Shown here in pieces: positions 840 to 58,360 of a stretch of DNA of 64,000 bases. Under the pieces are notes generated by a model, which saw nothing but the letters and a program-made list of their open reading frames with translations, searched no databases and had not been told where the DNA came from. The translations under genes and the position numbers were made by a program. The first letter of the stretch is position 1. Every line of letters starts with the position of its first letter. This DNA is from Thermoplasmatota archaeon (GTDB taxonomy: Archaea > Thermoplasmatota > Penumbrarchaeia > Penumbrarchaeales > Penumbrarchaeaceae): the NCBI GenBank assembly GCA_029762535.1, contig JARVGK010000006.1, positions 1-64,000 of the forward strand, written 5' to 3'.

Positions 840-3800
840 GTGGGTAGAAAGATGCCGTATAAAGGATCGAAGGGATCGTTATTCCGACATCGTCCTTGCA
901 GATACAAGCTGATATCGGTCGGATCCCTCATCGCGATCCTTCTTCTCTCATCGATCCCCCTGTCTTCTTCCGATGTCGCGGAGGCGAAGGACGGGTATTT
1001 CGCCAGCGGATCCGGCGTGAGGCTTGATCCGTACATTATCGAGGATGTGCTGGACCTTCAGGCCATGGGTCGCTTCCCGGATCTCCACTACGCCCTGCTA
1101 AACGACATAGACGCTAACATTACAAGAGAATGGAACTCCGGGGCGGGGTTCGATCCCGTGGGAACAAGAGAGAAACCGTTCACGGGATCTTTGGACGGCA
1201 GAAACATGGAGATAACGGGATTGTACATCGACCGCCCCGATAGAGGGGATGTCGGGCTCTTCGGATCCCTTGGATCCGAATCCTTCGTCAAGGGCGTTCG
1301 ACTTGAAAACGTCGAAGTAAAAGGTTATAGCTCCGTCGGTGCCCTGGCCGGGCGAAGCGATCGCGGGATGGTATCCAAGGTAAGCGCCCGGGGTTCCGTC
1401 GAGGGTGGAGGGGAGAGAATAGGCGGGATCGTCGGACTCAATCTCGGGACCGTCGCCAACTGCATAACACATATCACCATTCTATCTTCGGAGTCTGATT
1501 CGGGAGGCATCGTTGGGAAGAACGACGGGGGATCGGTCCTGTATTCGATCTCCAACGGGGACGTTGAAGGCGGCACGGCTACGGGCGGCATCGTCGGATT
1601 GAACGTCAAGGGAGAGATCTACGAGTGCGGCTCTTCATCCCAGGTGTACGGTACAATCGGCGTCGGAGGCGTGGTTGGTTGGAACGAGGAAGGTTCGATC
1701 GACCTGTGCTTCTTTCAAGACCGCGTCGAAGGCCTGCAGTACGTCGGAGGGATAACGGGATCGAACTACAGGGGAGTGGTATCCAACTCCCATTCCGACG
1801 GGAACGTATTCGGCACTAACAGGTACTGCGGCGGGATCTCAGGGCGTAACCAGGAAGGTTCTGTCGTGAACTCCCATTACAACATCGACGGAGTACTGAT
1901 CAACGGAGGCGATCACGTTACCATCGGAGGACTCTTCCAAGGCCAGTACAACGACTGGATCGAGAACGGATTCGCCCTGAACATCATCGATTATTCAGAA
2001 ACGCTCATACCTTGCGGGGGACATTTCGAAATATACAGCGTTCAGGGGTTGAAAGACCTTCTAGGGTTCTCAGACAGGAAGGGAGCAAGGTTCCTCTTGA
2101 GGTCCGACCTGGACCTCCATGATCATCCCGGATTCCATATCCCCTATCTGGGAGGGTGCGAATTCGACGGCGGGGGGAATGTTATCTCCAACCTCCGTAT
2201 CGATCTCCCCTTCTCCGAGAACGTAGGGCTGTTCGGTCACAACGACGGCGGGACGATAATGAACCTGGGGTTATATGGGTCGCGCGTCAACGGCACGTTC
2301 AGGGTTGGAGGGCTGGTCGGTAACAACAACGGAACCGTTATGAACTGCCATATAGAGGGTGAACTGACCGGAATGAACTACGTCGGAGGCCTCATCGGCG
2401 TGAACCATGCACAGGTCCGATCTTCCTGTTCTTCGGGTCAGGTTCGTGGTGAGGAGTCCGTCGGGGGTCTCTTGGGCCAGAACGTCGCGGGCTCGGTCCT
2501 GGACTGCTACTCCATTGCGGATGTTCGGGGTTTTGGAGCTAACGTCGGAGGCCTCATCGGTGCAAACTGGGCACCAGTGGAACGCGTTTACTCGACCGGA
2601 TCGGTCGAAGGCAGCGGTGTGATGACCGGGGGCCTCATAGGCCTCAACGTCAACGATCAGAACCTGAACAGCTGCTTCTGGGACATACTGACCTCCAGTA
2701 CCGACATCGGCATCGGCGGTGGATCCACCCGAGGGGCGCTGGGTTCTAGCACGCCCGTTATGAAGATGAAGGGCACTTACAGCGATTGGGACCTGACGAC
2801 TACCTGGTGCATGCTCGATCAGATAACCTATCCATATTTCAAATTCCAGGACAGGACACCTCCAAGAGCGGTTGCCGGGTCTGACCAGTTTGTTGATGAA
2901 GGCGTATACGTGGTCTTTGACGGCAGCGCAAGCGATGACAACATCGGTATCGATAACTACACATGGACCATCGATAACGAGGACGCTGTCCTTTACGGCA
3001 AGCATCCCGCTCATCGTTTTCCGATTGGGGGCGTTTACACGGTGATGCTCAACGTGAGCGATCCCTCCGGCAACCGGGATACTGATATTATGATCGTCTC
3101 GGTCAGGGACATCACGCCGCCCGTGGCGGAGGCCGGAGAGGACCTTTTAGTTGATAAGGGGGCGCATGTCGTCTTTAACGGCAGCTCGTCCAGAGATGCG
3201 CAGAAGATCGTCAATTATACCTGGACCTTCGAATACGGAAAGGCGATCGTCGTTCTCTTCGGGGTGATAAACGGGTTCACCTTCAACGTCGTGGGCATCT
3301 ATCCTGTGAGACTGAGGGTCTCCTATCCTTCCGGATCGTTCTCAGAAGATGTTATGAACCTGACGGTGAGGGATGCTTCGATCCGCCTTGCTAATGCCGG
3401 GGAGGATCTCATCGTCCCCATCGGGACCGAGGTCATCCTGAACGGGGCCTTCTCGCTCGATGATGCGCAGGTGAAAATGTTCTCATGGAGGTTCGAATAC
3501 AATGAAAGCGTCAGGACCATATACGGCCGATCGCTCGCGTTCACCTTCGATATCAGTGGAAGATACGATGCGAAGCTGAGGGTCCAAGATGTATACGGCA
3601 ATATCTTCGATGATACCGTCTCTATAACCGTCATCGACACGGGGATCGTCAAGGGGATCGTCCTTGACGAGAATGGGGATCCCGTTAAAGGGGCTCAAGT
3701 GAAGATCACGGCTTCGAACGATGAGGAATATTCCATCGAAACAGGAACGAACGGATCGTTCTCTCTTGAGATCTTCCACGGCCCCTTCTCATGGATCGTT

Positions 3801-4022
3801 GCCAAAGACGGATATGAACACATCTACGGGGATGGAGAAATAGCCCCGATGGAGGAGATGTTCCTGGACCTATCCGGGGATCCCATGGTCAGGGAGAGGG
3901 GATCCGGATCCCTTATCCTCATACTCCTCCTTATTTCGATCATGGCCCTTGCCGCGGCGGGGATCGCAATGTTCCTCCTTCGGAGGAAGAAAGGGGATAC
4001 CCTTGAAAATGTATCGAGGTGA
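840..4022 (+). CDS. GLUG-motif and PKD-domain cell-surface protein
   Basis: Signal peptide, GSG..DPYII start, many VGGLVG/GGIVG (GLUG) repeats, about 3 PKD domains (AxAG.D, NYTWTF), an Ig-like domain and a C-terminal TM followed by RRKK. Confidence 0.85.
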   Translation: MGRKMPYKGSKGSLFRHRPCRYKLISVGSLIAILLLSSIPLSSSDVAEAKDGYFASGSGVRLDPYIIEDVLDLQAMGRFPDLHYALLNDIDANITREWNSGAGFDPVGTREKPFTGSLDGRNMEITGLYIDRPDRGDVGLFGSLGSESFVKGVRLENVEVKGYSSVGALAGRSDRGMVSKVSARGSVEGGGERIGGIVGLNLGTVANCITHITILSSESDSGGIVGKNDGGSVLYSISNGDVEGGTATGGIVGLNVKGEIYECGSSSQVYGTIGVGGVVGWNEEGSIDLCFFQDRVEGLQYVGGITGSNYRGVVSNSHSDGNVFGTNRYCGGISGRNQEGSVVNSHYNIDGVLINGGDHVTIGGLFQGQYNDWIENGFALNIIDYSETLIPCGGHFEIYSVQGLKDLLGFSDRKGARFLLRSDLDLHDHPGFHIPYLGGCEFDGGGNVISNLRIDLPFSENVGLFGHNDGGTIMNLGLYGSRVNGTFRVGGLVGNNNGTVMNCHIEGELTGMNYVGGLIGVNHAQVRSSCSSGQVRGEESVGGLLGQNVAGSVLDCYSIADVRGFGANVGGLIGANWAPVERVYSTGSVEGSGVMTGGLIGLNVNDQNLNSCFWDILTSSTDIGIGGGSTRGALGSSTPVMKMKGTYSDWDLTTTWCMLDQITYPYFKFQDRTPPRAVAGSDQFVDEGVYVVFDGSASDDNIGIDNYTWTIDNEDAVLYGKHPAHRFPIGGVYTVMLNVSDPSGNRDTDIMIVSVRDITPPVAEAGEDLLVDKGAHVVFNGSSSRDAQKIVNYTWTFEYGKAIVVLFGVINGFTFNVVGIYPVRLRVSYPSGSFSEDVMNLTVRDASIRLANAGEDLIVPIGTEVILNGAFSLDDAQVKMFSWRFEYNESVRTIYGRSLAFTFDISGRYDAKLRVQDVYGNIFDDTVSITVIDTGIVKGIVLDENGDPVKGAQVKITASNDEEYSIETGTNGSFSLEIFHGPFSWIVAKDGYEHIYGDGEIAPMEEMFLDLSGDPMVRERGSGSLILILLLISIMALAAAGIAMFLLRRKKGDTLENVSR
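3610..3984 (+). repeat. Direct repeat copy 1 (~375 bp, C-terminal anchor module)
   Basis: Matches 6838-7212 with about 9 mismatches by manual comparison. Confidence 0.95.
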
Positions 4023-4028
4023 TCGTAA

Positions 4029-7000
4029 ATGATTTCGGAAAGACCGATAACTATCATAATTCTCGGGATGCTTCTGCTTTGTGTATTTCCAATAATGGAA
4101 GCGGAGAAAGCCCAAGGCAAGGACGGATCCTTCGGAGGTGGATCCGGGACGAAGGGGGATCCCTACATCATCGAAGATGTGTGGGATCTTCAGAATATTA
4201 GAGAGAATCTGACTGCTCATTACGTTCTCGGGAACGATATCGACGCTTCCGACACCATCAACTGGAACTCAGGGGCGGGGTTCGATCCCATTGGATCAAG
4301 TTGGTATACATATCCGATAATAGGAACACCTTTCACAGGAAGCTTGAATGGTCAGAACCATACTATCAGAGGATTATTTATCAACCGCTCTAGCTATGTC
4401 GGGCTCTTCGGAGAAATTGACCAAAAAGGAGTGGTTAAGGATCTTATCCTTTTGGATATCATTATATTTGGTACAAATAAGGTCGGAGGGATTGCAGGTT
4501 CTTTTGGGGGTGGTTTTTTAACAAACTGCCATGCGTATGGGAACGTTAGTGGTGGTATCAATGGAACAGGTGGCCTTATTGGATATAACGCGAGGGAAAT
4601 AACTCATTGCTCCTTTTCTGGGAAGGTGAGTGGAATCTCCGTAATTGGGGGGCTCGTAGGAATCAATAATCAGGGTCATATAGAGAACTGCCGGGCTTCA
4701 GTATCTGTTATAGAAAAAGGAGCAAACGTCGGTGGCCTCATAGGGAGAAATTATGGTTCTGTGGTTAAGTGTCAAGTCGTCGGCAGCGTCATCGGAGATA
4801 GAATTGTGGGAGGTCTCGTAGGCGAGAACTATATTGGGGTTATATCTCAAAGTTACTCCAAGGCAAACGTCAGCGGATGTCATAGGGTCGGTGGATTGGT
4901 TGGATGGGAGAGGGAGGGGTGGTTATCAAACTCCTATGCCATGGGAAGCGTTACCCGGCTTTCCGGTACGAATCAGAGCATCGGAGGGTTCGTCGGTTGG
5001 AATTCTCATAGTCAGATACTCAACTCCTATTCCACGGGCAAGGTGATCTATAATGGTTCCATCAACCCTGACAACAAGGGATTCGCAGGAATCGTATATA
5101 CAGGAAATGGGTCCTGGATGAGAGGTAACTTCTGGGATAACCAGACCAGCATGCAAAAGACCACGTCCGGAATCGCCACCGGTAAGAACACATCGGCAAT
5201 GAAGACAAGGGAAACGTTCAAACAAGCGGGATGGGATCTTAAAAGGGTCTGGTGTATGAACGATCATGTGACATATCCTCTGTTGAGATGGAATGAGAAA
5301 TTCCCCACATCGAACGCCGGACCCGATCAGACCGTTGATGAAGGGACCGTGGTGATGTTCGATGGATCGGCAAGCATCGACGATCGTGGGATCACGAACT
5401 ATACATGGATGATCACCGATGAAAAAACCGTGACTCTGTATGGCGCGACCAACTCATATAAATTCAATCGGCCTGGAATTTTCTTGGTATCCCTTTATGT
5501 AAAAAACGAATTGGGAAACATGGATGAGGATACCGTGAAGGTCATCGTATCCGATATAACCCCTCCCATTGCTGATGCGGGTCCGGATCAGATCGTGGAG
5601 AAGGGTACTTACGTACAATTTAACGGCAGCCAGAGTACGGACAATGTCGGGGTCGTTCATTATGAATGGACCTTTTTCATCGGAGAACCGATAAAGATCA
5701 ACGGTATTCTACCGACCCATCTATTCAACAGCTATGGTGTTTTCGAAGTGACATTGAACGTTACGGATGCCGCAGGGTTTTGGGATAGGGATAACATGAA
5801 GGTCATCGTATCGGACCTGACACCTCCCAAAGCGGTGGCTGGCAACGATCTAAATGTGAACGAAGGGGCCGCGGTCACTTTCGACGGCAGCCAGAGTACG
5901 GACAATGTCGGGATCGTGAACTGGACATGGACCATATATGATATTGATCCCGTCATTCTCTATGGCGTCCGGGTAACGTACCGGTTCAACAACCCAGGCC
6001 AGTTCGTCATTCACCTCAACGTATCGGACCAAAAAGGCAATTGGAACACCGATTCACTAACTGTTACAGTTAACGATATCAGCCCACCGGTAGCATCAGC
6101 GGGACAGGACCGGATAGTTGATGAAGGGACCATCGTGATATTCGATGGAAGCGGCTCTTACGATAACGTGCAAATTATAAACTACACATGGAAATTCAAC
6201 GATGGGGATATCATAACGCTCTATGGCGCCAGACCTGTCTACCGCTTCGACCATCCCGGTTCATTCACCGTGACCCTGATGGTGATCGATCCTTCGGGTC
6301 ATTGGCATTCAGATATAGTCATCATCACCGTCCGGGATACAACACTTCCCATGGCAGTTGCAGGATCGGATATATACATCGACCAGGGAATGACCGCATA
6401 TTTTAATGGCAGCGGAAGCTCTGACAACGTCGGGATCGCATACTACAACTGGACGTTCGATCACGGATCAGAGAGGGTCGCTCTATCCGGGATCTCCCCT
6501 ATCTTCAAATTCGACATACCGGGAACATATAATGTCATACTAAATGTCACCGACACCTCAGGCCTATGGCACGAAGATACCATTACCGTTTACGTAACGG
6601 ATACGATCCCTCCCGTTGCGAACGCCGGAGAGGATAGAACGTTACCCGCAGGGATCGTCGTTATCTTCAACGGTTCACTCTCAAGTGATAATCACGTAAT
6701 AAAAAGCCACATATGGACATTCTCATACGATGGCGAAGAAAAAACATTCGAGGGAGAGACATTCGAATTTACTTTTGATTCGGGAGGAGTGTACAGGATA
6801 TTGCTCACCGTCATCGACCAATTCGATAATCGGGATAATGATACCGTCTCTATAACCGTCATCGACACGGGGATCGTCAAGGGGATCGTCCTTGACGAGA
6901 AGGGGGATCCCGTCAAAGGGGCTCAAGTGAAGATCACGGCTTCGAACGATGAGGAATATTCCATCGAAACAGGAACGAACGGATCGTTCTCTCTTGAGAT

Positions 7001-45301: not shown

Positions 45302-47542
45302 CTATATCGAGTCAATAATGGCATTGTAGGTCTGGCTAGGCCTCATGGCCCTGGATGCCATATCGTCATCCGGCTTGTAGTAGCCGCCTATGTCCACGGG
45401 ATGTCCTTGGGCCGCGTTAAGCTCCTGCAATATCTTATCCTCGTTCCCCTCGAGCTGTTCTGCCACGGGTGTGAATATACTCTTCAGCTCGGGATCGTCA
45501 TTCTGATCCGCAAGCTCCCTTGCCCAGAACATGGTCAGGTAGAAATGGCTGCCCCTGTTGTCTATCTCGTTGACGTCTCTACCGGGCGACCTATTGCTCT
45601 CGAGGAACCGACCGTTGGCCCTATCCAGGGTTTGGGACAGAACTCTAGCCTTTTCGTTCCCGGTCCTGTTGGCCAGGTGCTCGAGCGATGCCGATATGGC
45701 AAGGAACTCACCCAAAGAGTCCCATCTGAGATGACCCTCATTGAGGAACTGCTCGACGTGTTTGGGAGCGGAACCTCCCGCACCCGTCTCGAATAGACCT
45801 CCGCCGTTCATCAACGGCACGATCGAGAGCATCTTTGCGCTTGTGCCCACCTCTAGTATCGGGAAAAGGTCCGTGAGATAGTCCCTAAGGACGTTCCCAG
45901 TCACGGAAATAGTGTCCTTTCCCTCCTTTATGTACTGGCATGAGAACCTGGTGGCCTCGTCCGGAGACATTATCCTTATATCGAGCCCTGTCAGATCGTA
46001 TTCTTTCAGATATTCGTTCACTTTTTTGATCAATTCCGCATCGTGGGGCCTTTTCTCGTCAAGCCAGAACACGACAGGGAGCTTCGTATCGATGGCCCTG
46101 CCCACAGCTAATTTCACCCAGTCCTTGATCGCCGGGTCCTTGACCTCGCACATCCGGAAGATATCGCCCTTCTCCACATCCTGCTCCATCAGGACCTCGC
46201 CAGAGGAGGCGACTAGCCTCATCTTTCCGTCGCCTGGTGCCGAGAAGGTCTTATCATGGGACCCGTACTCCTCGGCCTTCTGGGCCATGAGGCCGACGTT
46301 CTGGACAGACCCCATGGACCTGGGGTCGAAAGCACCGTTCTGCCTGCAGAAATCGACGACGGCCCTGTACACCCCGGAATAGCTGCTGTCAGGGATCACG
46401 AACTTTGCCTCTTTAAGTGTCCCATCCTTTCCGTACATCCTACCACCTGCCCTGATGGCTGCGGGCATGGAGGCATCGATTATGACATCGCTCGGGACGT
46501 GGAGATTGGTTAGGCCCTTATCCGAGTTCACCATGGCCAGCTCTGGACCTTTGGCATACACCGCCTCGATGTCCTTCACTATCTCCAACCTCTTCTCCTC
46601 AGGTAGCGATGCGATCTTTGTGTATAGGTCTCCTAGTCCGTTGTTGGGGTTGATCCCAAGCTCCTTGAATATCACTTCATGCTTCTCGAATACGTCTGCG
46701 AAGAAAACGGAGACAACGTGTCCGAATATAATAGGGTCGGACACCTTCATCATCGTCGCCTTCAGATGGATAGAGAACAGTACCCCCATCTCTTTAGAGT
46801 GCTCTATCTGCCCCCTTATGAAATCCCTGAGGGATCTCACGCTCATGTGAGATGTATCGACGATCTCCAGGGCAGGCAGCTTCATATTATCCTTGAGGAC
46901 CTTGACATCGCCGTTATCTCCAGTATATTCTATCCTTGCCTCCATGTCCGAGTCTATCGTCAAAGACCTCTCGTTCGACCTGAGATCCCCGGATGCCATG
47001 CTGGATACATGCGCCCTGTTATCGGGTTTCCATTCAGCCATGGAATGCGGGTGCTTCCTCGCATAGTTCTTTACGGATGCCGGGGCTCTCCTATCTGAAT
47101 TCCCTTCTCTCAGGACGGGATTGACCGCGCTGCCTTTTATCTTATCATAGACGGTCTTTATCGTCCTTTCCTCATCGTTCTTGGGTTCATCTGGATAATC
47201 CGGCAGGGCGTACCCTTTGCCCTGCAGCTCCTTTATCGTCGCTTTTAGCTGTGGTATCGACGCGCTTATACACGGGAGCTTGATAACGTTCGCTTCGGGC
47301 ATTTTGACAAGCTTCCCCAGCTCTTCCAGGTCATCGTTGATCCTCTTGTCCTCGCTCAGATGGTCGGGGAACTTGGCTATCGTCCTGCCGGAGAGCGATA
47401 TGTCCCTGGTCTCCACCTTCACTCCCGCGGCTCCCGTGAACGCTTTGATCACGGGAAGCAGCGAATAGGTCGCAAGCGCCGGGGCCTCATCGACCCTGGT
47501 GTATATTATCCTGTTTCCATCAATTCTCTCTTCGTTCGACAT
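45302..47542 (-). CDS. icd: Monomeric NADP-dependent isocitrate dehydrogenase
   Basis: [39 protein letters not shown] and [13 protein letters not shown]; about 746 aa; SD AGGAG. Confidence 0.95.
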
Positions 47543-49172
47543 CCTTTTCCTCCTTTTCAGCGAATACCGCATCATCGTAGTATCTTGGTTCGACGTTCCT
47601 TACCACATCTATGATGGTCCCGTCCCTGTATTCGATCAAAGCAACGATCTCATCTCCCCAGTTAGGTTCGACCTTGGTCTGGGTTATCTCGTAGGCCTGC
47701 CTTTGAAGGTCCTCTATGGTCGTTATCTTCATGTCCCGGGGTATCTTGACCGAAGCGAGCTTTTCAAGAAGGTCGATCCTTCGCGGGTTCATCGCTATGC
47801 CCCGCTCTGTCACGACGACGTCAATGTTCTCTCCAGGGGTCACCACGGTGTTGACCCTGTCGACCACGACCGGATACCTTCCTCTGAAAAGAGGGACGGT
47901 CAATATCGTCAGGCTAGCTCCGGCCGCGGTGTCCGAGTGCCCTCCGACGGGCTCGGCTATGATGCCGTTGGACATCGTGACCGAATTAACGTTATAATCC
48001 AGATCCACCTCGGTCGCGCCCAGGACGACTATGTCCAGCTTGTTGACGGTACATCCTCTCCCATGTATGTTGGCGTATGCTCCGATAGGCAGGTCAACGT
48101 GGATCTTGGGGTTCTCCTTCATGTTATGTATGGCGGCCACATCGAATGCCTGGCCCGTGATGAGTTTCTTCACTGTCCCATCGAGGAGCATCTCGACAAG
48201 GAATTTCGTGGTCCCGCCCTGGGCCCAGGCGGCCTTCACCCCCTTTTCCTTCATCCTCTGATGAAGGAATTCCGTGAAAGCAAGCGAGATCCCCCCGGCC
48301 CCCGCTTGAAAGCTCATCCCCTCCTTGACGTAACCCAATAGGTCCGCGATCCTCATCGCGTCCTTGGCTATCTTGAGCCTGGTGGGCGAGTTGGTTATCC
48401 TGAGTTCGCCTGAGGCGATCTTGTTCGGATCCCCTATCTTGTCCACGACGACCACGTAATCTACCAGCTCCTGGCCGATGGACATGGGGAAGTTGGGATA
48501 TTCCACAAGATGGTCCGTCACTGCGATAACATGGTCGGCGAAGTGAGCATCGGCATAGGCGAAATTGATCGTACCGCAAGCTGATGGGCCGTTGATCGCG
48601 TTGAGATTTCCCAGTTCATCTGCGGATGGTGCTCCTATGAAGGCCACATCCACGTGTATGTCACCGGCCTCGATCGCCCGGACCCTTCCCCCATGGGACC
48701 GGATCCTCATAGGTTGGTTGAGATATCTTCCTGAGCTTACGAGCCTCCCGAACTCGCCCCTTGCGGAACCGCCTTCGACCTTTTTGATCGTCCCGTTCAT
48801 TATACATCGGATTATTGCCTCCTCCTGGCAGGGGAATGTGGATGAGGGGGCAAGGATGAGGTCCTTTATTCCCTTCCTCTCGATCTCCGCAAGGACCATG
48901 TTCATCACATGGTCCCCGTTCCTGAAATGGTGGTGGAAGGATATGGTCATGCCGTCCTTCAACCCGATCTTTTCCATTGCCTCGCCAAGTGTTTTCACAA
49001 CCTCGTTCTCCTCGGAGGCAACATATCCGAGCTTGGGTCCGTACTTATGGTCCTTGACCGGCCTGTGGGCGAAGGGACCTTTGTAAGGTATCAGCTCCAC
49101 ACCATCGATGGACCTCGGGACCTTTCTACCCAGGGAGTTCTCCACCCACTCCACATCCGAGATCTTCACCAT
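47520..49172 (-). CDS. citF: Citrate lyase alpha subunit (citrate CoA-transferase)
   Basis: [35 protein letters not shown]...NVN, GGHSDTA and EYRDGT.ID. Confidence 0.9.
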
Positions 49173-50116
49173 CAGTCATCGCCTCCACCGCTTTTTTTTG
49201 CCTTCTGCTGCATCATCTCCGTCACTTCCTCGGGAGATGGTATGTCAAGGTCCGCCATCTTGGCGATCTCGAGCACCCTCTCGGCCTTGAGCACTATTGG
49301 TCTGTCTATCATCTTCGCCCCTAGGGCGACCGCTCCTGAGCCCTTCTTTTTCGCTTCCTCGATAGCCATCTTCACCCTAACGGCGTAGAGGATCTGCTCT
49401 GGGGTTGGATCGAAAACCGAATGTATTATCTCGACCTGGCTGGGATGGATGCATGCCTTTCCATCGTAACCCATTGTCTTTATCATCTCGGTCTCCTTTC
49501 TCAAACCTTCGGGGTCGCCGAAATCAGAATAGACAGTATCTATTGCTTGTATCCCGGCGGCCTTGGCCGCGAGAAGTACCATCGACCTAGCCGTGTTTAT
49601 CGCCGTTCCTGTGCTGGACCTCTCACCCCCGAGATCCGCTGTAAGGTCCTCTCCGCCTATGGTAAGCGCCTCGAGTCTTTTGGAGCATCTTGCGATATCA
49701 TATGCGTTGATGATGCCCTTTGCCGTCTCCAATGTCGCGAACAGCTTTATCCTGCCTATTGGGAGGCCTTTCTTCTCCTCCAGGTCGGTCACGATATCAT
49801 CCACCTGTATGACGTCCTCCCTGGACTCGACCTTCGGAATGTATATGCCGTGCAGTTTCTCCGAGACTATCTGTTTGATGTCCCATTTCCCGTAGGGCGT
49901 GCTCATCGGATTGATCCTCACGGTGACCTCGGTCGCTGGGCCGAAATCGATGACCTTCAATGCCTCGGAGACGAGCATCCTGGCATCGGTCTTGTATTCG
50001 AGGGGAACGGAGTCCTCAAGGTCTAATGATATTACATCGGCGCCGTATAGACCTGCTGGGGGTATCATCTTCGGGTTGTTCCCTGGGACGTATAGCCTGG
50101 AACGTCTGAGCCTCAT
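49172..50116 (-). CDS. citE: Citrate lyase beta subunit (citryl-CoA lyase)
   Basis: RRS.LYVPGN, DLEDSV, VRIN, ETA.G, G.EDL and GK..IHP.Q. Confidence 0.9.
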   Translation of the reverse strand: MRLRRSRLYVPGNNPKMIPPAGLYGADVISLDLEDSVPLEYKTDARMLVSEALKVIDFGPATEVTVRINPMSTPYGKWDIKQIVSEKLHGIYIPKVESREDVIQVDDIVTDLEEKKGLPIGRIKLFATLETAKGIINAYDIARCSKRLEALTIGGEDLTADLGGERSSTGTAINTARSMVLLAAKAAGIQAIDTVYSDFGDPEGLRKETEMIKTMGYDGKACIHPSQVEIIHSVFDPTPEQILYAVRVKMAIEEAKKKGSGAVALGAKMIDRPIVLKAERVLEIAKMADLDIPSPEEVTEMMQQKAKKSGGGDD

Positions 50117-50397
50117 TCAAAAGCGCCCCCTTTTATCGCAGCGGCCTTGGTGCGCGCCACTATGGTGAAGTTCAGAGGGCTCTTACCAGAGCTCCAAACG
50201 ATGGCGTCCTCTATGCCCATACCGTGAAGCGTATTATCAAAGATCCGGAAGACCTCATCCCTGAAGACATCTCGGGATTTCCCCACTATTTCTATCTTTA
50301 TACCAGTCCCGGGCTCTGCGGGCGAGAGCTTTACTATGCAGTCCTCTCTCTCCTCGGTGCCGGCCTGGGCCTCCCTTAGCAGCTTTCTTGCGGCCAT
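50113..50397 (-). CDS. citD: Citrate lyase gamma subunit (ACP)-like protein lacking the attachment serine
   Basis: 94 aa directly upstream of citE. AQAGTEERED aligns with the canonical AVAGTLESxD. Confidence 0.75.
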   Translation of the reverse strand: MAARKLLREAQAGTEEREDCIVKLSPAEPGTGIKIEIVGKSRDVFRDEVFRIFDNTLHGMGIEDAIVWSSGKSPLNFTIVARTKAAAIKGGAFE

Positions 50398-50409
50398 GAC
50401 ATCACAACC

Positions 50410-52332
50410 TCATGAAAGCTGGCTCTTGGTATAATTGAGGGTTCCGCCGAGCCTGATGGTCTCCAGCTCCCTATCGGAGAGATCGTGGACGAGCTTTATC
50501 TTCGATCCCTTGTTCACTACCTCAATGATCAACTCACCCTTGAGATCGCCCACTTCCAGCTTCAGCTGGTCACCCTTCTCTATCTTGTCGTAATCGGAAG
50601 GGTCATTGAAGGTCAAGGGTGGGATCCCGAAGTTAATTAGGTTCGCCCTGTGTATCCTTGCGAAGGACTTGACGATAACAGCTTTGACACCAAGGTATTT
50701 CGGTGCCAGTGCTGCGTGCTCTCTGGATGATCCCTGACCGTAATTGTCCCCGCCGATGACGAAACCACCTTTCTTCTCGAGCGCCCTCTGCGGGAAGGTG
50801 TTGTCCACCTGACTGAAGACGAATTCGGATATGGCCGGGACGTTGGACCTGAGAGGCAGGATCTTCGCTCCTGCGGGCATGATGTGGTCCGTCGTTATGT
50901 TGTCTCCGACCTTTATAAGGACCTCCCCATTAAGCTCCGGCGATAGCGGTTGGAAGTCCGGCAGCGGTTTTATGTTAGGACCTCTCAGGATCTCCACCTT
51001 TCCCGCCTCATCAGGGGGCAGCGGATACACTATTAAGCTGTCGTCGTAGTCGTAAACCTCAGGTTCATCGATCATGTGCATTTGACCGATCTCCCTCGGG
51101 TCCGCGAACTCTCCCTTTATCGCCGTATAGGCAGCTATCTCTGGGGAGACCAGATAGACCTGGGCATCCTTTGTACCTGACCGGCCTTCGAAGTTGCGGT
51201 TGAATGTCCTCACTGATATCGCTCCCGTGTTCGGAGCGAGACCCATTCCAATGCATGGTCCACAGGCGTTCTCGAGCATCCTGAAACCCGCTCCGACGAT
51301 ATCCGCCAGCGCGCCGTTCTTGGTTATCATCTTCACAATGGCCCTCGATCCGGGGGATACGGTAGCGGATACATCCTGATGGACCTTCTTCCCCTTCATT
51401 ATCTGGGCGACAACCATAAGGTCCCTGTATGATGAATTCGTGCAGGAACCCACGCATACCTGGTCCACTTTCATACCCAGAAGCTCTTTGAGGGTGACCA
51501 CCGCCCCTGGGGAATGAGGTTTTGCCACCATCGGCTCCAAGGATGAGAGGTCTATCTCCATGACCGTATCGTAAGCTGCGTCATCGTCAGCTTTCAGTTC
51601 GATCCATTGGTCCTCCCTGCCCTGTGCCTTGAGGAACTGCCTGGTGATCTCGTCCGAGGGAAATATGGAGGTCGTGGCTCCCGTTTCCGTCCCCATATTT
51701 GTGATCGTGGCCCTGTCCGGGACGCTCAAACTCTTAATGCCTGGGCCGAAATACTCAAGTATGAATCCCCTGCCTCCCTTTACATCGAGCCTTCTTAGGA
51801 CCTCGAGTATCACGTCCTTGCCGGATACCCAATCAGGAAGCTCACCCTTCAGATGGACCCCCATGATCTTCGGGTACTTCAGACCGAAGGCCCCACCTCC
51901 CATGGATACTGCGACATCGAGACCGCCTGCACCTATGGCGAGGGATGCCACGCCACCAGCAGTTGGTGTGTGGGAGTCCGATCCGATCAGGGTCTTTCCC
52001 GGCCTTGCGAAGCGTTCGAGCATTACCTGATGGCAGATCCCGTTGCCGGCCTTGGACAGCGTAATGCCATATCTCCTCGCGATGGATTGGAGATACCTGT
52101 GATCGTCAGCGTTCTTGAAATCGCTCTGCAGCGTGTTATGGTCTATGAATGATACGCTCAATTCGGTCTTTACCCGGTCAAGGCCCATTGCCTCGAACTG
52201 AAGGTATGCCATGGTCCCAGTAGCATCTTGGGTGAGCGTCTGGTCCATCTTGATCCCTATATCGGATCCTTTCTCTTCATCTCCTGATACGATATGTTCT
52301 CTGATGATCTTCTCCGAAAGGGTTAGTCCCAT
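50410..52332 (-). CDS. acn: Aconitate hydratase (short, ~640 aa type)
   Basis: QDATGTMA, DHN, GSDSHT, GSCTN, CGPCIG, NRNF, TTDHI and GSSREHA; SD AGGAGG. Confidence 0.9.
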   Translation of the reverse strand: MGLTLSEKIIREHIVSGDEEKGSDIGIKMDQTLTQDATGTMAYLQFEAMGLDRVKTELSVSFIDHNTLQSDFKNADDHRYLQSIARRYGITLSKAGNGICHQVMLERFARPGKTLIGSDSHTPTAGGVASLAIGAGGLDVAVSMGGGAFGLKYPKIMGVHLKGELPDWVSGKDVILEVLRRLDVKGGRGFILEYFGPGIKSLSVPDRATITNMGTETGATTSIFPSDEITRQFLKAQGREDQWIELKADDDAAYDTVMEIDLSSLEPMVAKPHSPGAVVTLKELLGMKVDQVCVGSCTNSSYRDLMVVAQIMKGKKVHQDVSATVSPGSRAIVKMITKNGALADIVGAGFRMLENACGPCIGMGLAPNTGAISVRTFNRNFEGRSGTKDAQVYLVSPEIAAYTAIKGEFADPREIGQMHMIDEPEVYDYDDSLIVYPLPPDEAGKVEILRGPNIKPLPDFQPLSPELNGEVLIKVGDNITTDHIMPAGAKILPLRSNVPAISEFVFSQVDNTFPQRALEKKGGFVIGGDNYGQGSSREHAALAPKYLGVKAVIVKSFARIHRANLINFGIPPLTFNDPSDYDKIEKGDQLKLEVGDLKGELIIEVVNKGSKIKLVHDLSDRELETIRLGGTLNYTKSQLS

Positions 52333-52509
52333 TTTATTCCTCCTTATCACCTGCCCATCGGGGCGATTGCCATAAGTCGAACCGATATATATATGTTACT
52401 GAATTATAATTATAGAAAATCTTTTTTATATTATTGTAGATGATTTCTTAAATTAATTTCCATTATAACGATGAATATATATATGATCGGGTGCATCATG
52501 TAAGCCAAT
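52333..52509. promoter_or_regulatory. AT-rich divergent promoter region (acn operon / regulator)
   Basis: Very AT-rich. ATATATATATG occurs twice (~52386 and ~52475), and several TTTATA/TTAAA boxes are present. Confidence 0.55.
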
Positions 52510-53664
52510 ATGAAGAACTTGAACGATGCTGAGAGAACGGCCCTGTTCGGTCTCGTGACATTTCCCGATCTCAACGACATGGACCTCTCACAACGTTTCT
52601 CAATGAAGTATTCCACATTCGCCTCGGCCAAGAGTCGCGTGATCGCAAAGGGATTCGTCGATGAGTACTATCTGCCCGTATTCCCTAGGCTTGGCTTCGA
52701 GCTATTGGCGACCGTATATACGGATTTCAACCCTGCTGTGACTGTGGAGGAACGCGTCAAGAACACGATAAAGCATGTAGAGGTCTATCCCGAGATGGTT
52801 TTTTCCCTCGGAGAGTCACACAGGGGTTTCTCGATATCGATCGCTGAGAACGTCACCCGCGTCATGAGGATATCACTCGAGAGGATCAAGTTGTTCGCTG
52901 AGCTGAACCTTCTGGAGATCGAGCTTCCCACGGAGATAATGCTTCCGTTCGAACTCTCGAACATTCATAGGTACTTCAACCTCTCACCACTGATCAATCT
53001 TACTTACTCCACCACGGGCAAGAGCGGGTCGGAGCTTTCCAAGGAATTCTCCATCCCCCGAAGCGATCTTCTTTTTGGGGATTCGATTATGCAGGTCAAT
53101 CCTAAAAACGAAAGATCGCAAGAGGACGATCTCTCCAGGGTGGAAAAGGAGCTGATGTACTATATAGTGAAGTACCCTCAACTATCGGCGGCAAAGCTCG
53201 CGAACATCGCCCCCTATTCTAGGCATACGATATCAAAGGTGAGGGAGGACATGCTGTATCGGGGTCTTCTAACCAAGCAGGTCATTCCGAACCTCAATGT
53301 ACTAGGATATTCCATACTCTCCCTGTTCCATGCCCGGATCGATCCAAGCAAACCCATAGATCCATCGACATGCAACCGGAGAGAGATCCTCCAGGATGAG
53401 ACCGTGTTCCTTGTCAGTAGGCCGACCGAGCTTTTGATGCTCGCCGTTTACGAGGATTACGTACATTACAACAAAGGCATGGGTGCTTTCATCCAGTTCC
53501 TCAAGTCAGGGAACTACATAACCAAGATCCCGACGATAAGGAACCACTCCCTCAAAGAGGCGATCATGATCAAGAGGTTCCAGTACCATGAGCTCCTGAG
53601 ACAGAGGTTCTCGCTCAATATCAAAGATGGTCGAGATACCAATATCGATGATCATCTCTCGTGA
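52510..53664 (+). CDS. Tandem-duplicated Lrp/AsnC-like winged-HTH transcriptional regulator
   Basis: Two homologous halves (L...E...L..LV.FP.L....L......ST.......GF......P....LG and LS..EK..M..IVKYP.LS...LA....SRHT.S......GL.....P....LGY). Confidence 0.65.
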   Translation: MKNLNDAERTALFGLVTFPDLNDMDLSQRFSMKYSTFASAKSRVIAKGFVDEYYLPVFPRLGFELLATVYTDFNPAVTVEERVKNTIKHVEVYPEMVFSLGESHRGFSISIAENVTRVMRISLERIKLFAELNLLEIELPTEIMLPFELSNIHRYFNLSPLINLTYSTTGKSGSELSKEFSIPRSDLLFGDSIMQVNPKNERSQEDDLSRVEKELMYYIVKYPQLSAAKLANIAPYSRHTISKVREDMLYRGLLTKQVIPNLNVLGYSILSLFHARIDPSKPIDPSTCNRREILQDETVFLVSRPTELLMLAVYEDYVHYNKGMGAFIQFLKSGNYITKIPTIRNHSLKEAIMIKRFQYHELLRQRFSLNIKDGRDTNIDDHLS

Positions 53665-54702: not shown

Positions 54703-55956
54703 TCACCTCTTCTTGCGGGCCTTGATCTCGACGCTCGGGCTGAGATCGACAACGCTCTGACCCCTTACCAGGTCGTCGGGTATGGGCTTCTCCTTCTCGG
54801 ATACGAGATCTGGAAAGAGGGTGTTCAATTTCTTTGTTTCGAAGGGGCCCGAACGTAACAGCTTCGGAGGGTCCGTGCTCATATCGAGCACCGTATGGCC
54901 TATGCCGTAATGGGTAGGCCCTCCATCAACGGCTATTGTCACGGTTTCCCCCAGTTGCTTGAGCGCCTCCTGCATTGTAGAGGGTGGAGGCTGCCCATGG
55001 ATGTTCGCAGAAGTGCCACATATCTCTATCCTCTCCATCACCGCTTTCATGAAGATGTTCTCACCGTCGGCTAGAGAGACGGTCTTCAGATTGGATGTAA
55101 CATAGTCGGGCACCCGTTCCTTCTTCTTTATGAATATAATGGATATCGGCCCGTCCAATTCGTTCTCCAGCAATGCCATGGTTCTGTCATCGATCTTCGC
55201 GTAATCCGTGAAACGGCTTCTCGGGACTATCATGGTCAGAGGCATGTCCTCTCCGCGTTTCTTCATCGCGTAGATCCTCTTGATGGCCTCCGGACGTTTT
55301 ATTGAGGCGAAAAGCCCATAGGTTGTATCGAAGGGACCTAAAAGGACCTCCCCTCGATTCAACATCTCGACCACGGTATCGACATATTTTTCCTTTGCCG
55401 GAAATATCTTCACCTTTTCAACCTCCTTCATTCTATCATTGTCCTTGAAAGGTCTGCTCATCTCCGATATACCGCCCTTCTCTATAAGAAGGGGAAATAG
55501 TCCGCCTTTTTCGATAATATCCATTATGAAACCTTGAAGCGGGGGCAGCGGCGAATCCCAACCCTTGGTGATATTATGTAACCTGTTATCCTCTATCAGG
55601 ACGCTGTCACCGTCAGAGCAAGCATCGGGAAGGTCGGGGTCCTCGTAAAGCGGTATGCCGAGATTTATCAGGTTCCTCTTCATTATAGGGGCTATTGACT
55701 TGGCAATGACCGCTTTTATTCCCAGGAACCTCATGGCGTTTGAGGCATGCTCTCTTGAGGACCCCTTGCCGAAGTCCTCACCGGCGACGATCACATCGCC
55801 TTCTCTGACCCCGGAGGCGAACCCAGGATAATCCTGCTCAAGGCAATGAAGGGAATAATCCTCCTGTGGAAGATGCAGATACCTCGTAGGGGCCAGCGCA
55901 TCGGTATCGATATTATCCCCCAAAAGCCATATCCTTCCCTTTGCGATCTGTTTCAA
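54703..55956 (-). CDS. Fusion of a LeuD/HacB-type isomerase small subunit and a YrdC/Sua5 (TsaC) domain
   Basis: N-terminal GDNIDTD, FG.GSSREHA and RN.IN.G motifs; C-terminal P.DT.YGL, K.R, TSAN, DGG and LLR.G motifs; one continuous frame. Confidence 0.85.
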   Translation of the reverse strand: MKQIAKGRIWLLGDNIDTDALAPTRYLHLPQEDYSLHCLEQDYPGFASGVREGDVIVAGEDFGKGSSREHASNAMRFLGIKAVIAKSIAPIMKRNLINLGIPLYEDPDLPDACSDGDSVLIEDNRLHNITKGWDSPLPPLQGFIMDIIEKGGLFPLLIEKGGISEMSRPFKDNDRMKEVEKVKIFPAKEKYVDTVVEMLNRGEVLLGPFDTTYGLFASIKRPEAIKRIYAMKKRGEDMPLTMIVPRSRFTDYAKIDDRTMALLENELDGPISIIFIKKKERVPDYVTSNLKTVSLADGENIFMKAVMERIEICGTSANIHGQPPPSTMQEALKQLGETVTIAVDGGPTHYGIGHTVLDMSTDPPKLLRSGPFETKKLNTLFPDLVSEKEKPIPDDLVRGQSVVDLSPSVEIKARKKR

Positions 55957-57182
55957 GGCACCACCTCTGAAGGATGGGCTATAACGCCTTTTAGCGCGGA
56001 TGCCGCCGCGACGGCGACACCGCTTAGGTATATCTTGCTCGTGGGATCTCCCATTCTACCCTTGAAGTTTCGATTGGTGGTAGAGATCGCCACCTCTCCT
56101 GCGGGGAGGACTCCGAGGAAACCTCCTGCACAAGGGCCACAAGTAGGCATCGATATTATCCCCCCAGCATCCATAATGGTCTTAACGTATCCCGCCCTGG
56201 CCGCCCGGGTGTATACCGATCTCGACCCGGGAACGACGAGCATCTTGACCTCTGGGTGGATCTTCTTTCCCTTCAGGATGTCCGCCAGGACCCTGAGATC
56301 GTCCATTCTTCCATTTGTGCATGAGCCAATGAAGACCTGATCTATCCTCTTTCCGGTATGATTGTAGACATCGTCCACTCGATCCGGGGAACCTGGCAAG
56401 GATATCTGAGGTCCTCTGTCGGTCACATCGATATGCTCGGTCTCCCAGTCCCAATCCTTCGATCCTGGCCCTTCATCATCGCTTTCGTTCGTCAGCGCTG
56501 ATATACAATCTATCTCCGATGCCATATTGGTGAGTGTCATCCTGGAATCGTTTCCGATCCAATTCAATATATCCCCCTTCATCTCGAGCGTTCTGCCGTT
56601 CGCCCCGCCCGGTCCGAGGTGCTTGATCATCATAAGCGCCAGGTCCTTTCCCTCGCACCATACGTCCGGGGTACCCTCGAAGTATATGCCAAGGGGTTTA
56701 GGAACCTGCAGCCAGAACTCCCCGGAGGCCATGGCGACGGCCAGGTCCGTGGACCCTATGGCCGTGCAGAACGCACCCAAAGCACCTCCGGTCGTTATAT
56801 GGGAATCGGCGCCTATGACGAGATCACCCTTCTTGACCCGATCCCCCTCGAAGAGATGCACGTGACATATGCCCTCGCCCCATCCGATCAGGTTCGCTAT
56901 TCCGTGACGGGATGAGAATTCTGTCATGGCCCGGCAGCTTTCGGCTGATTCAAGGTCCTTCGGCGGAGTGAAATGGTCCAGATAAAGGTATATCTTCTTG
57001 GCCGCCCTTAGATACGGGACACCTTTGGAGTCCAACATCCTCATCGCAGGTGGGGTTGTAACATCATGTCCCATTATATGGTCCGGGAAGAAAACACCGT
57101 AATCCCCCGGGACGAGATCCCCTTCGATCATATGATCTGAGAGTATGGACAACGCCAATGAACCAAGTACATCCCCGTTCAT
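55953..57182 (-). CDS. leuC: 3-isopropylmalate/homoaconitate-type isomerase large subunit (LeuC/HacA)
   Basis: DH, GICH, GADSH, GSCTNGR, PTCGPC and STTNRNF.GRMG. Confidence 0.85.
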   Translation of the reverse strand: MNGDVLGSLALSILSDHMIEGDLVPGDYGVFFPDHIMGHDVTTPPAMRMLDSKGVPYLRAAKKIYLYLDHFTPPKDLESAESCRAMTEFSSRHGIANLIGWGEGICHVHLFEGDRVKKGDLVIGADSHITTGGALGAFCTAIGSTDLAVAMASGEFWLQVPKPLGIYFEGTPDVWCEGKDLALMMIKHLGPGGANGRTLEMKGDILNWIGNDSRMTLTNMASEIDCISALTNESDDEGPGSKDWDWETEHIDVTDRGPQISLPGSPDRVDDVYNHTGKRIDQVFIGSCTNGRMDDLRVLADILKGKKIHPEVKMLVVPGSRSVYTRAARAGYVKTIMDAGGIISMPTCGPCAGGFLGVLPAGEVAISTTNRNFKGRMGDPTSKIYLSGVAVAAASALKGVIAHPSEVVP

Positions 57183-58360
57183 TGGCAGTGCCTCCTCAGG
57201 GATTTCAATTCGAAACCGTTGGCCCTTGCGAATTGTATAAGATCGTCCTCAGTATCGAACGGGCCTTTGTATGTGGTCGTCTCTTTTACCAGGTCCGTGA
57301 GCTTTATCAATTTCTCATCGTCCAATGTCAGATTGTTCTTCTCGAGGAAATGTCTCAGTGCCGCCTTTCCGGTATGCTTTCCGATCACGAACTGACCTTT
57401 ATGCAGTCCCATCTCCTCCGGGTCGATGATCTCGTAGGTCAGGGGGTTCTTTAGTACGCCATGAACGTGTATACCGGACTCGTGCTTGAAAGCGTTCTCT
57501 CCTATGAGAGGCTGCCATATCTGTATGTTCAGACCCATCTCGTTCTTCACGGTGTCGCATAGGTTGCCAAGTCTGTCCATCTTCAAATTGGTTTCCACGC
57601 CCAGATGCCTGATGTTGAACTTCAATACGACCGCTATCTGTTCTAGAGGGCAGTTCCCGGCCCTCTCTCCGATCCCGGTCACCGTGCAGTCTATCTGTCC
57701 CGCACCGGCCCTGACCGCCGATAAGGTGTTGGCAGTTGCCAATCCTAGATCGTTGTGGCAGTGTATGCCCACCGGAACCCTGTCCCCAACACACGAGCGG
57801 ACATGCTGGATCATGAGAGAAATATGCTCGGGCATTGCACATCCGACCGTATCCGCGAGATTGACCACATCGGCTCCAGCTCTGACCCCTTCCTTCATAA
57901 TGTTCCCCAGAAAGAACAGGTCGGACCTTGTCGCGTCCTCCGAGCTGAACTGAATGGAATCGAACTTACCCTTGGCGTACCTTATCGCGTTGATCATCTT
58001 GTTTATGACATCCAGGGGTTCCATCCTGAGTTTGTCCCTCATGTGTATCGGAGAGGTGGATACCCAGAGGTGGAGCCTTGACCTTCCCGCTCTGGAAAGG
58101 ACCTCCTGGCACATGTCGATCTCGGTCGTTATCGGCCTGCATAGAACAGCTACTGTGGAGTTCTCCACCTCCTTGGAGATCATCCTTATCGCATTTCTCT
58201 CTGATCCTCCGTTGGCCGGAAAACCTGCCTCAAGTACGTCCACTCCGGCCGAGTCCAAAGCACGGGCTATGTTCACCTTCTTTTCTGGGGTGAGGTGTAT
58301 CCCTGGCGCCTGCTCACCATCCCTCAGAGTGGTATCGAATACCCTTAAATTCCTGACCAC
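57179..58360 (-). CDS. DRE-TIM 2-isopropylmalate/homocitrate/citramalate synthase family enzyme without a regulatory domain
   Basis: DTTLRDGEQ, EDATR, DTVG, HCHNDLG, GIGERAGN and HESGIH; 393 aa. Confidence 0.9.
   Translation of the reverse strand: MVRNLRVFDTTLRDGEQAPGIHLTPEKKVNIARALDSAGVDVLEAGFPANGGSERNAIRMISKEVENSTVAVLCRPITTEIDMCQEVLSRAGRSRLHLWVSTSPIHMRDKLRMEPLDVINKMINAIRYAKGKFDSIQFSSEDATRSDLFFLGNIMKEGVRAGADVVNLADTVGCAMPEHISLMIQHVRSCVGDRVPVGIHCHNDLGLATANTLSAVRAGAGQIDCTVTGIGERAGNCPLEQIAVVLKFNIRHLGVETNLKMDRLGNLCDTVKNEMGLNIQIWQPLIGENAFKHESGIHVHGVLKNPLTYEIIDPEEMGLHKGQFVIGKHTGKAALRHFLEKNNLTLDDEKLIKLTDLVKETTTYKGPFDTEDDLIQFARANGFELKSLRRHCQ

Follow-up and report, generated by a model that had tools for sequence, protein, structure and literature searches.

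The DNA analysed here, hereafter called the window, comprises 64,000 nucleotides (positions 1 to 64,000, forward strand) of contig JARVGK010000006.1 from a sediment archaeon of the Thermoplasmatota (assembly GCA_029762535.1). It contains a citrate lyase operon whose acyl-carrier subunit, designated CitD* (citD*, 50113-50397, minus strand), has an arginine at the position of the prosthetic-group serine. Citrate lyase is a textbook enzyme with a covalently attached arm resembling coenzyme A (CoA), and in canonical CitD that serine carries 2'-(5''-phosphoribosyl)-3'-dephospho-CoA. The view that the serine-less citrate lyase is a variant of this known enzyme is well supported by comparative genomics. 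Our findings further suggest that CitD*, CitE and CitF probably constitute a citrate lyase without a covalent arm, which would cycle free acetyl-CoA and citryl-CoA and use CitD* as a non-covalent subunit.

The translation of citD*, a 94-residue protein with the CitD/MdcC fold, starts with MAARKLLREAQAGTEEREDC and carries the site motif AGTEEREDC. In an alignment to canonical CitD (AGTLES[GSN]D ... DKGALD), Arg17, encoded by AGA at 50347-50349 (minus strand), occupies the column of the canonical Ser14. Translation and alignment agree with an earlier note on this DNA, which had read AGTEERED with an AGA codon in place of serine and had described an intact reading frame translationally coupled to citE; the coupling is visible as an ATGA overlap between the citD* stop and the citE start (50113-50116). 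The same note had also reported a change of the later DKGALD motif to GKSPLN. This change is seen in the alignment, where G71-N76 (50170-50187, minus strand) matches the canonical motif, but it is specific to the close archaeal clade, and because many other CitD proteins with lysine or arginine at the site retain D-x-G-A-L-D, it is not coupled to the loss of the serine. Membership in the Pfam family ACP (PF06857) is clear, at 41.6 bits with a cut-off of 25.1, while the scores for the citD equivalog TIGR01608 (50.1 bits, cut-off 63.5) and for NF009726 (41.1 bits, cut-off 65) fall below their cut-offs. An AlphaFold2 model based on 58 sequences reached a mean predicted local distance difference test (pLDDT) score of 91.8, and its best fold match in the PDB is MdcC (5vit_C, template modelling score 0.71). 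Residues 14-19 are modelled as an acidic, exposed loop joining the first two strands.

Conservation at the site was examined with a homologue search covering about 5.8 billion proteins. It returned 52 close homologues of CitD* (69-86% identity), and those with a named source come from Thermoplasmatota metagenome-assembled genomes (MAGs) of many studies. Arginine or lysine occupies the site in all 29 close homologues that were aligned out of the 52, as well as in 17 of 17 related species-level genome loci, also from MAGs. Across 18 clade members the codons are AGG (7), AGA (5), CGT (3), AAA (2) and CGG (1); a single substitution would turn AGA into AGT or AGC, yet no serine codon occurs among them. 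The ratio of non-synonymous to synonymous substitution rates (dN/dS) has a pairwise median of 0.094 in this clade, with dS at about 1.6 and synonymous sites near saturation, and CitD* is under strong purifying selection. Since arginine and lysine replace each other between close relatives, the pattern suggests selection for a positive charge and argues against a lysine-linked cofactor. Glu16, the residue beside the serine, is invariant in 122 canonical proteins and variable in the Lys/Arg type, which fits the loss of a recognition site for CitX, whereas Asp19 is invariant in both types.

These observations support the earlier proposal that CitD* cannot carry the arm at this position, and they bear on the possibility that the substitution is a sequencing error or that the gene is a decaying pseudogene, an explanation already refuted and left with practically no probability. 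Error is ruled out by the same substitution, with no serine codon, in independent assemblies from many studies, which answers the objection that reads might show AGT or AGC. Decay, which the earlier note had also argued against, is ruled out by the intact frame, the translational coupling, a dN/dS of 0.09 and the arginine or lysine found in all 17 loci.

Genes that load and re-prime the canonical arm were also sought. A search of the window's genome, 93% complete, revealed none of CitG, CitX, CitC (PF08218) and MdcG. The class to which it belongs is probably EX4484-6, Candidatus Penumbrarchaeia (PMC12220078); it comprises 37 genomes, and a CitD-like gene is present in 23 of them. Neither CitX nor CitC was detected in any of the 37, and none of CitX, CitC and CitG in the 23 genomes bearing citD*; CitG occurred once, in a genome without citD*. 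Among 401 evenly sampled Thermoplasmatota genomes, 62 encode a CitD-like domain and none has a detectable CitX. Serine was absent from the site in all of about 40 CitD-like sequences inspected from this phylum, both stand-alone and fused, which have lysine or arginine or, in a few cases, glutamate or asparagine with an adjacent arginine or lysine. The earlier note had raised the question of whether serine-less CitD co-occurs with the loss of citC, citG and citX, and this is what the class and phylum samples indicate.

Loci and genomes with a Ser-type CitD served as controls and showed that the searches recover the loading genes where these are expected. A citC gene and a citX-citG fusion lie directly behind citF in Ammoniphilus (L020), and citC lies behind citF in a Ser-type citramalate-lyase locus of Tissierellaceae (L027). 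CitX is present in three Ser-type genomes (G401-G403) and was not found in two Lys-type genomes (G404, G405). Of 201 Bacillota genomes sampled as a further control, 15 encode the domain; CitX was detected in ten of these, and all ten have a Ser-type CitD. Two others are of the MdcC type and contain CitG and MdcG (G426, G498), and another has a Lys-type CitD only, with CitX, CitG and MdcG not found (G597). Overall, CitX was detected in 12 of 14 Bacillota genomes with a Ser-type CitD. Two CitD copies, one of the Ser type (AGTLESSD) and one of the Lys type (AGTEEKND), coexist in one Bacillota genome (G454; L080, L081), and a separate citE follows each.

The genes citD*, citE and citF lie in a tightly packed operon between acn and icd. 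On the minus strand, the operon begins with acn, encoding aconitate hydratase (50410-52350; NF005558, 969 bits), and continues after a gap of 12 nucleotides with citD*, citE (49172-50116), citF (47520-49172; one nucleotide of overlap with citE) and finally icd, encoding a monomeric NADP-dependent isocitrate dehydrogenase (IDH; 45302-47575; PF03971, 1253 bits; TIGR00178, 1239 bits), whose true start is probably Met12 at 47542. The order acn-citD-citE-citF-icd is kept in every related locus long enough to show it, in line with the co-occurrence with acn and icd suggested earlier, and acn keeps its place in 17 related loci and also in archaeal loci that are more distant. In L036, from a sister order, and in L024, from a MAG labelled Thermococci, the slot after citF is filled by a non-homologous enzyme of the Iso_dh type (PF00180; L036:5002-6222; L024:12714-13922) in place of the monomeric IDH. 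Because a non-orthologous IDH occupies the same slot, the citrate lyase genes are functionally tied to aconitase and IDH. Genes for ATP-citrate lyase are neighbours of the operon in two related loci, L003 and L036; in L036 the beta-subunit gene follows the Iso_dh-type gene. A phosphoenolpyruvate carboxykinase (PEPCK) gene adjoins citF in L022. The citF of one related MAG (L009:11205-12858) is split into two overlapping matches that lie in different frames, which reflects either a frameshift or a faulty assembly.

The two catalytic subunits are intact. CitE, the putative citryl-CoA/ACP lyase (beta subunit), matches PF03328 over its full length (216 bits), has TIGR01588 (citE) as its best match, and shows conserved family motifs when aligned from end to end with the free-CoA lyases 5ugr, 1sgj and 5vxc. 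CitF, the putative citrate CoA/ACP-transferase (alpha subunit), matches PF04223 (521 bits), exceeds the curated equivalog threshold of TIGR01584 (587 bits, threshold 501), adjoins citE and matches PDB entry 2hj0 (E = 1e-142). The same genome encodes an orphan CitF-family protein of 548 residues (contig C58, 81406-83052; L088:7406-9052, plus strand; PF04223, 477 bits) that is 41% identical to the operon CitF. It is flanked by genes for a KsgA-type rRNA dimethylase and TruD, with no CitE or CitD nearby, and presumably functions as a CoA-transferase for free CoA esters.

Beyond the archaea, Lys/Arg-type CitD is widespread in many bacterial phyla, often fused to CitE. A search with a natural CitD-CitE fusion (P0081) gave more than 110 fusion clusters among its best 120 matches, with named sources in Bipolaricaulota, KSB1, Thermotogota, Wallbacteria and Thermoplasmata. 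Among the 119 clusters listed, the site residue was lysine in 89, arginine in 17 and serine in none. The frequency of fusion to CitE indicates that the CitD domain is a working partner of the lyase. Stand-alone Lys-type citDEF also occurs in two complete genomes. A distant Lys/Arg-type cluster has 29 members, among them a sequence attributed by name to a Deltaproteobacteria MAG, and metagenomic contigs with such an Arg-type CitD show the order tctC-tctA-citD(Arg)-citE-citF, although these contigs are short and end within or just past citE or citF. As tctC and tctA precede the lyase genes, the Arg-type enzyme is linked to tricarboxylate uptake. A profile search with a mixed alignment returned only Ser-type proteins of gut Clostridia among its best 120 matches and provides no census of Ser-type versus Lys/Arg-type proteins.

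Trees suggest that the site has switched more than once. On the carrier-domain tree, 5 changes account for the distribution of Ser versus Lys/Arg labels, compared with about 29 when labels are shuffled. This tree is unrooted, and 29 of its 34 Ser-type rows fall in one weakly supported cluster amid more diverse Lys/Arg types. The CitF tree places the archaeal enzymes in one clade and a Bacillota Lys-type CitF among the Bacillota Ser-type enzymes, a placement that carries a long-branch warning. Because the Bacillota Lys-type CitF groups with the Bacillota Ser-type enzymes and apart from the archaeal clade, the trees imply at least two separate switches between serine and lysine or arginine.

Two peculiarities of the fusions in Thermoplasmatota were also observed. 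In four loci from families with small genomes, an HD-domain gene and the citD*-citE fusion overlap at the start of the latter (L054:4009-4512, L056:7389-7955, L058:7766-8410, L061:5753-6256). This gene was set aside as a part of the system in the window's organism, where the homologue lies in an unrelated context (contig C12, 42231-42785). L061 also encodes, on the minus strand at 3783-5756, a triple fusion of 657 residues that joins a Lys/Arg-type CitD, CitE and a short-chain dehydrogenase; no citF lies within the 14 kb retrieved.

In the mechanism that we favour, CitF would use free acetyl-CoA as the CoA donor for citrate, with citryl-CoA and acetate as products, and CitE would split citryl-CoA into oxaloacetate and acetyl-CoA. 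Free acetyl-CoA would be recycled catalytically, so that the loading enzymes CitG and CitX and the ligase CitC would not be needed; re-priming from the cellular acetyl-CoA pool would take over the task of CitC. The earlier note had likewise suggested a structural subunit or the binding of free CoA. Isolated alpha and beta subunits of citrate lyase reportedly accept free acetyl-CoA and citryl-CoA, as Dimroth and Eggerer in 1975 and Dimroth, Loyal and Eggerer in 1977 are said to have found, and many lyases of the CitE family act on free CoA esters. The lysine or arginine, at the tip of the beta1-beta2 loop, most likely holds a phosphate of free CoA or contacts the entrance of the partner's active site. 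That it grips a CoA phosphate, as a non-covalent arm, is our preferred guess, suggested by the replacement of a phosphodiester-bearing serine with a positive side chain and by the 3'-phosphate that is present in free CoA and missing from the canonical arm. A more elaborate version, which we regard as tentative and on balance doubtful, makes the Lys/Arg-type CitD a CoA-holding subunit that would hand acetyl-CoA and citryl-CoA between CitF and CitE by an ionic phosphate grip. Such a subunit would perhaps be as old as the Ser type, a single cluster within the more diverse Lys/Arg-type family, or older, and would allow a ligase- and ATP-free citrate cleavage that closes a redox-balanced glutamate fermentation in these archaea.

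Several points weigh against an arm-free citrate lyase. Most of the genomes searched are incomplete MAGs. The window's genome also encodes ATP-citrate lyase (AclB, AclA; contig 5), beside which another enzyme for citrate cleavage seems redundant. CitE reaches 322 bits for TIGR01588, under the cut-off of 443, and its substrate could differ. The PDB holds no coordinates of CitD or of a CitDEF complex, leaving the contact made by the lysine or arginine to guesswork. Finally, the correspondence between loading genes and site residue is strong and imperfect, because two Bacillota genomes (G409, G542) have a Ser-type CitD, yet CitX, CitG and MdcG were not found in them. Their loci (L071, AGALESSD; L074, AGAVESSD) contain citE and citF, and their CitE is short, at about 240 residues; these assemblies may be incomplete, or their serine-bearing forms may likewise not be loaded.

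The main rival explanation is that CitD* is purely architectural, joining CitE and CitF through a salt bridge of the lysine or arginine while free CoA esters bind to CitF and CitE only. The frequent fusion of the domain to CitE, the existence of some fusions with no citF nearby and the ability of CitE-family lyases represented in the PDB to handle free CoA esters without any CitD all speak for it. We nevertheless consider it rather unlikely, since lysine or arginine was specifically selected at the former phosphoserine position in what appear to be at least two switches, which binding of an anionic ligand would explain better, and the modelled loop around the site is acidic and exposed. It is less likely still that a different residue of CitD* (Ser69, Ser73 or Cys20) bears a covalent cofactor added by unidentified enzymes. 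All three residues are invariant in the close clade, and a cysteine at +3 from the site, the position of Cys20 (codon at 50338-50340, minus strand), is shared by 63 of 114 fused domains of the Lys/Arg type, against 0 of 122 Ser-type CitD proteins from the gut and 3 of 19 diverse Ser-type proteins. None of the three, however, is conserved across the Lys/Arg type: the Ser73 position is asparagine in P0057 and arginine in P0059, and position 20 is alanine, isoleucine, valine or leucine in about half of the proteins, which rules out Cys20 as a universal replacement thiol. Nor do the operons contain a conserved candidate transferase. The alignments reveal no alternative attachment serine conserved across Lys/Arg-type proteins, and the objection in the earlier note that another serine might take over the role finds no footing here.

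An enzyme running in the synthetic direction and replacing citrate synthase would also fit part of the evidence. CitE would condense acetyl-CoA with oxaloacetate, CitF would pass the CoA to acetate or another acid, and the citrate would feed aconitase and IDH towards 2-oxoglutarate. No true citrate synthase was matched in the window's genome, where the only Citrate_synt match is the C-terminal domain of AclA, and acn-citDEF-icd corresponds to the oxidative branch from citrate to 2-oxoglutarate. The missing citrate synthase leaves some room for this role, which we nevertheless judge improbable. With K near 1 M for citrate = acetate + oxaloacetate, the equilibrium of citrate lyase lies far towards cleavage when concentrations are in the millimolar range. 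Related clusters have PEPCK or tricarboxylate transporters as neighbours, and ATP-citrate lyase could itself make citrate. The organisms are, moreover, described as protein fermenters to which glutamate is amply available (PMC12220078).

For an arm-free lyase working in the cleavage direction, the gene context is favourable, with acn and icd as flanks, PEPCK in a related locus (L022) and a tricarboxylate transporter before the Arg-type citDEF. In this organism, CitD*, CitE and CitF most likely cleave citrate derived from 2-oxoglutarate and ultimately from glutamate. Glutamate would be converted to 2-oxoglutarate, IDH would carboxylate this reductively to isocitrate, aconitase would yield citrate, and the lyase would release acetate and oxaloacetate, a route that would be in redox balance without consuming ATP. 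The class has been described as degrading proteins, and a partial reverse tricarboxylic acid (TCA) cycle leading from glutamate to acetyl-CoA has been proposed for it (PMC12220078).

Two further features lie upstream of acn in the window. A divergent gene on the plus strand (52510-53664) encodes a putative regulator of 384 residues with a weak TrmB-like helix-turn-helix match (PF01978, E = 0.0038, below cut-off), and equivalent divergent helix-turn-helix genes are found in L003 and L036. Farther on, 54703-58360 (minus strand) contains genes for an HMGL-like synthase and an aconitase-family large subunit, together with an open reading frame of 417 residues in which a Sua5/YciO/YrdC domain accompanies that of an aconitase small subunit.

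No paper that notes a CitD without the serine turned up in a full-text literature search, outside which most subscription journals lie; the genome paper of Ignavibacterium album describes a CitE-CitD fusion and does not remark on the serine (PMC3362086). What this work adds is the stand-alone archaeal form between acn and icd, the negative result for CitX across class and phylum, the evidence from codons and dN/dS, the replacement of the IDH, and a Bacillota control sample with its exceptions. If a large, widespread branch of the family works in this arm-free way, thousands of proteins annotated in databases as "citrate lyase acyl carrier protein" would be misdescribed, and metabolic reconstructions that require citC, citG and citX would wrongly call citrate lyase inactive. 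Models of the reverse TCA cycle and of fermentation would be affected for Thermoplasmatota, Bipolaricaulota, KSB1 and others. The pair of Ser and Lys/Arg types would offer a natural experiment on why enzymes tether their cofactors, and the operon link to aconitase and IDH makes the route from glutamate to acetate via reductive carboxylation testable.

Among the closest known systems is the canonical CitDEF citrate lyase (Enzyme Commission number 4.1.3.6) of Klebsiella pneumoniae, Escherichia coli and lactic acid bacteria, which shares with the window the same three families, gene order and translational coupling. The window differs from it in the arginine or lysine that replaces the attachment serine, in that CitX, CitG and CitC were not found, and in profile scores, with CitD and CitE under the equivalog cut-offs and CitF above. 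The neighbours differ as well: the window's citDEF genes are flanked by acn and icd, and the canonical ones by a citrate carrier, oxaloacetate decarboxylase and citC, citX and citG (compare L020). MdcC (5vit chain C) belongs to the same Pfam family as CitD* and is the best structural match of its model; it has a GSGDLE serine motif and needs MdcB (CitG family) and MdcG, as in G426 and G498. This motif is not present in CitD*, and neither MdcG nor a CitG-family gene was found in the window's genome.

The free acyl-CoA cleavage chemistry proposed for the window resembles that of members of the CitE/HpcH family such as malyl-CoA lyase, CLYBL and Mycobacterium tuberculosis CitE. Ccl of Hydrogenobacter, a citryl-CoA lyase, is comparable for its reaction, and its own fold is that of citrate synthase. 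Unlike the window's system, these CitE/HpcH lyases and Ccl work without a CitD-like partner and without CitF. The systems that combine a CitD-CitE fusion with CitF, among which that of I. album was compared by description only, have the same Lys/Arg-type carrier as the window. In the fusion P0081, moreover, the CitE part is very like the CitE of the window. All of them differ from the window in that CitD* is a separate protein of 94 residues.

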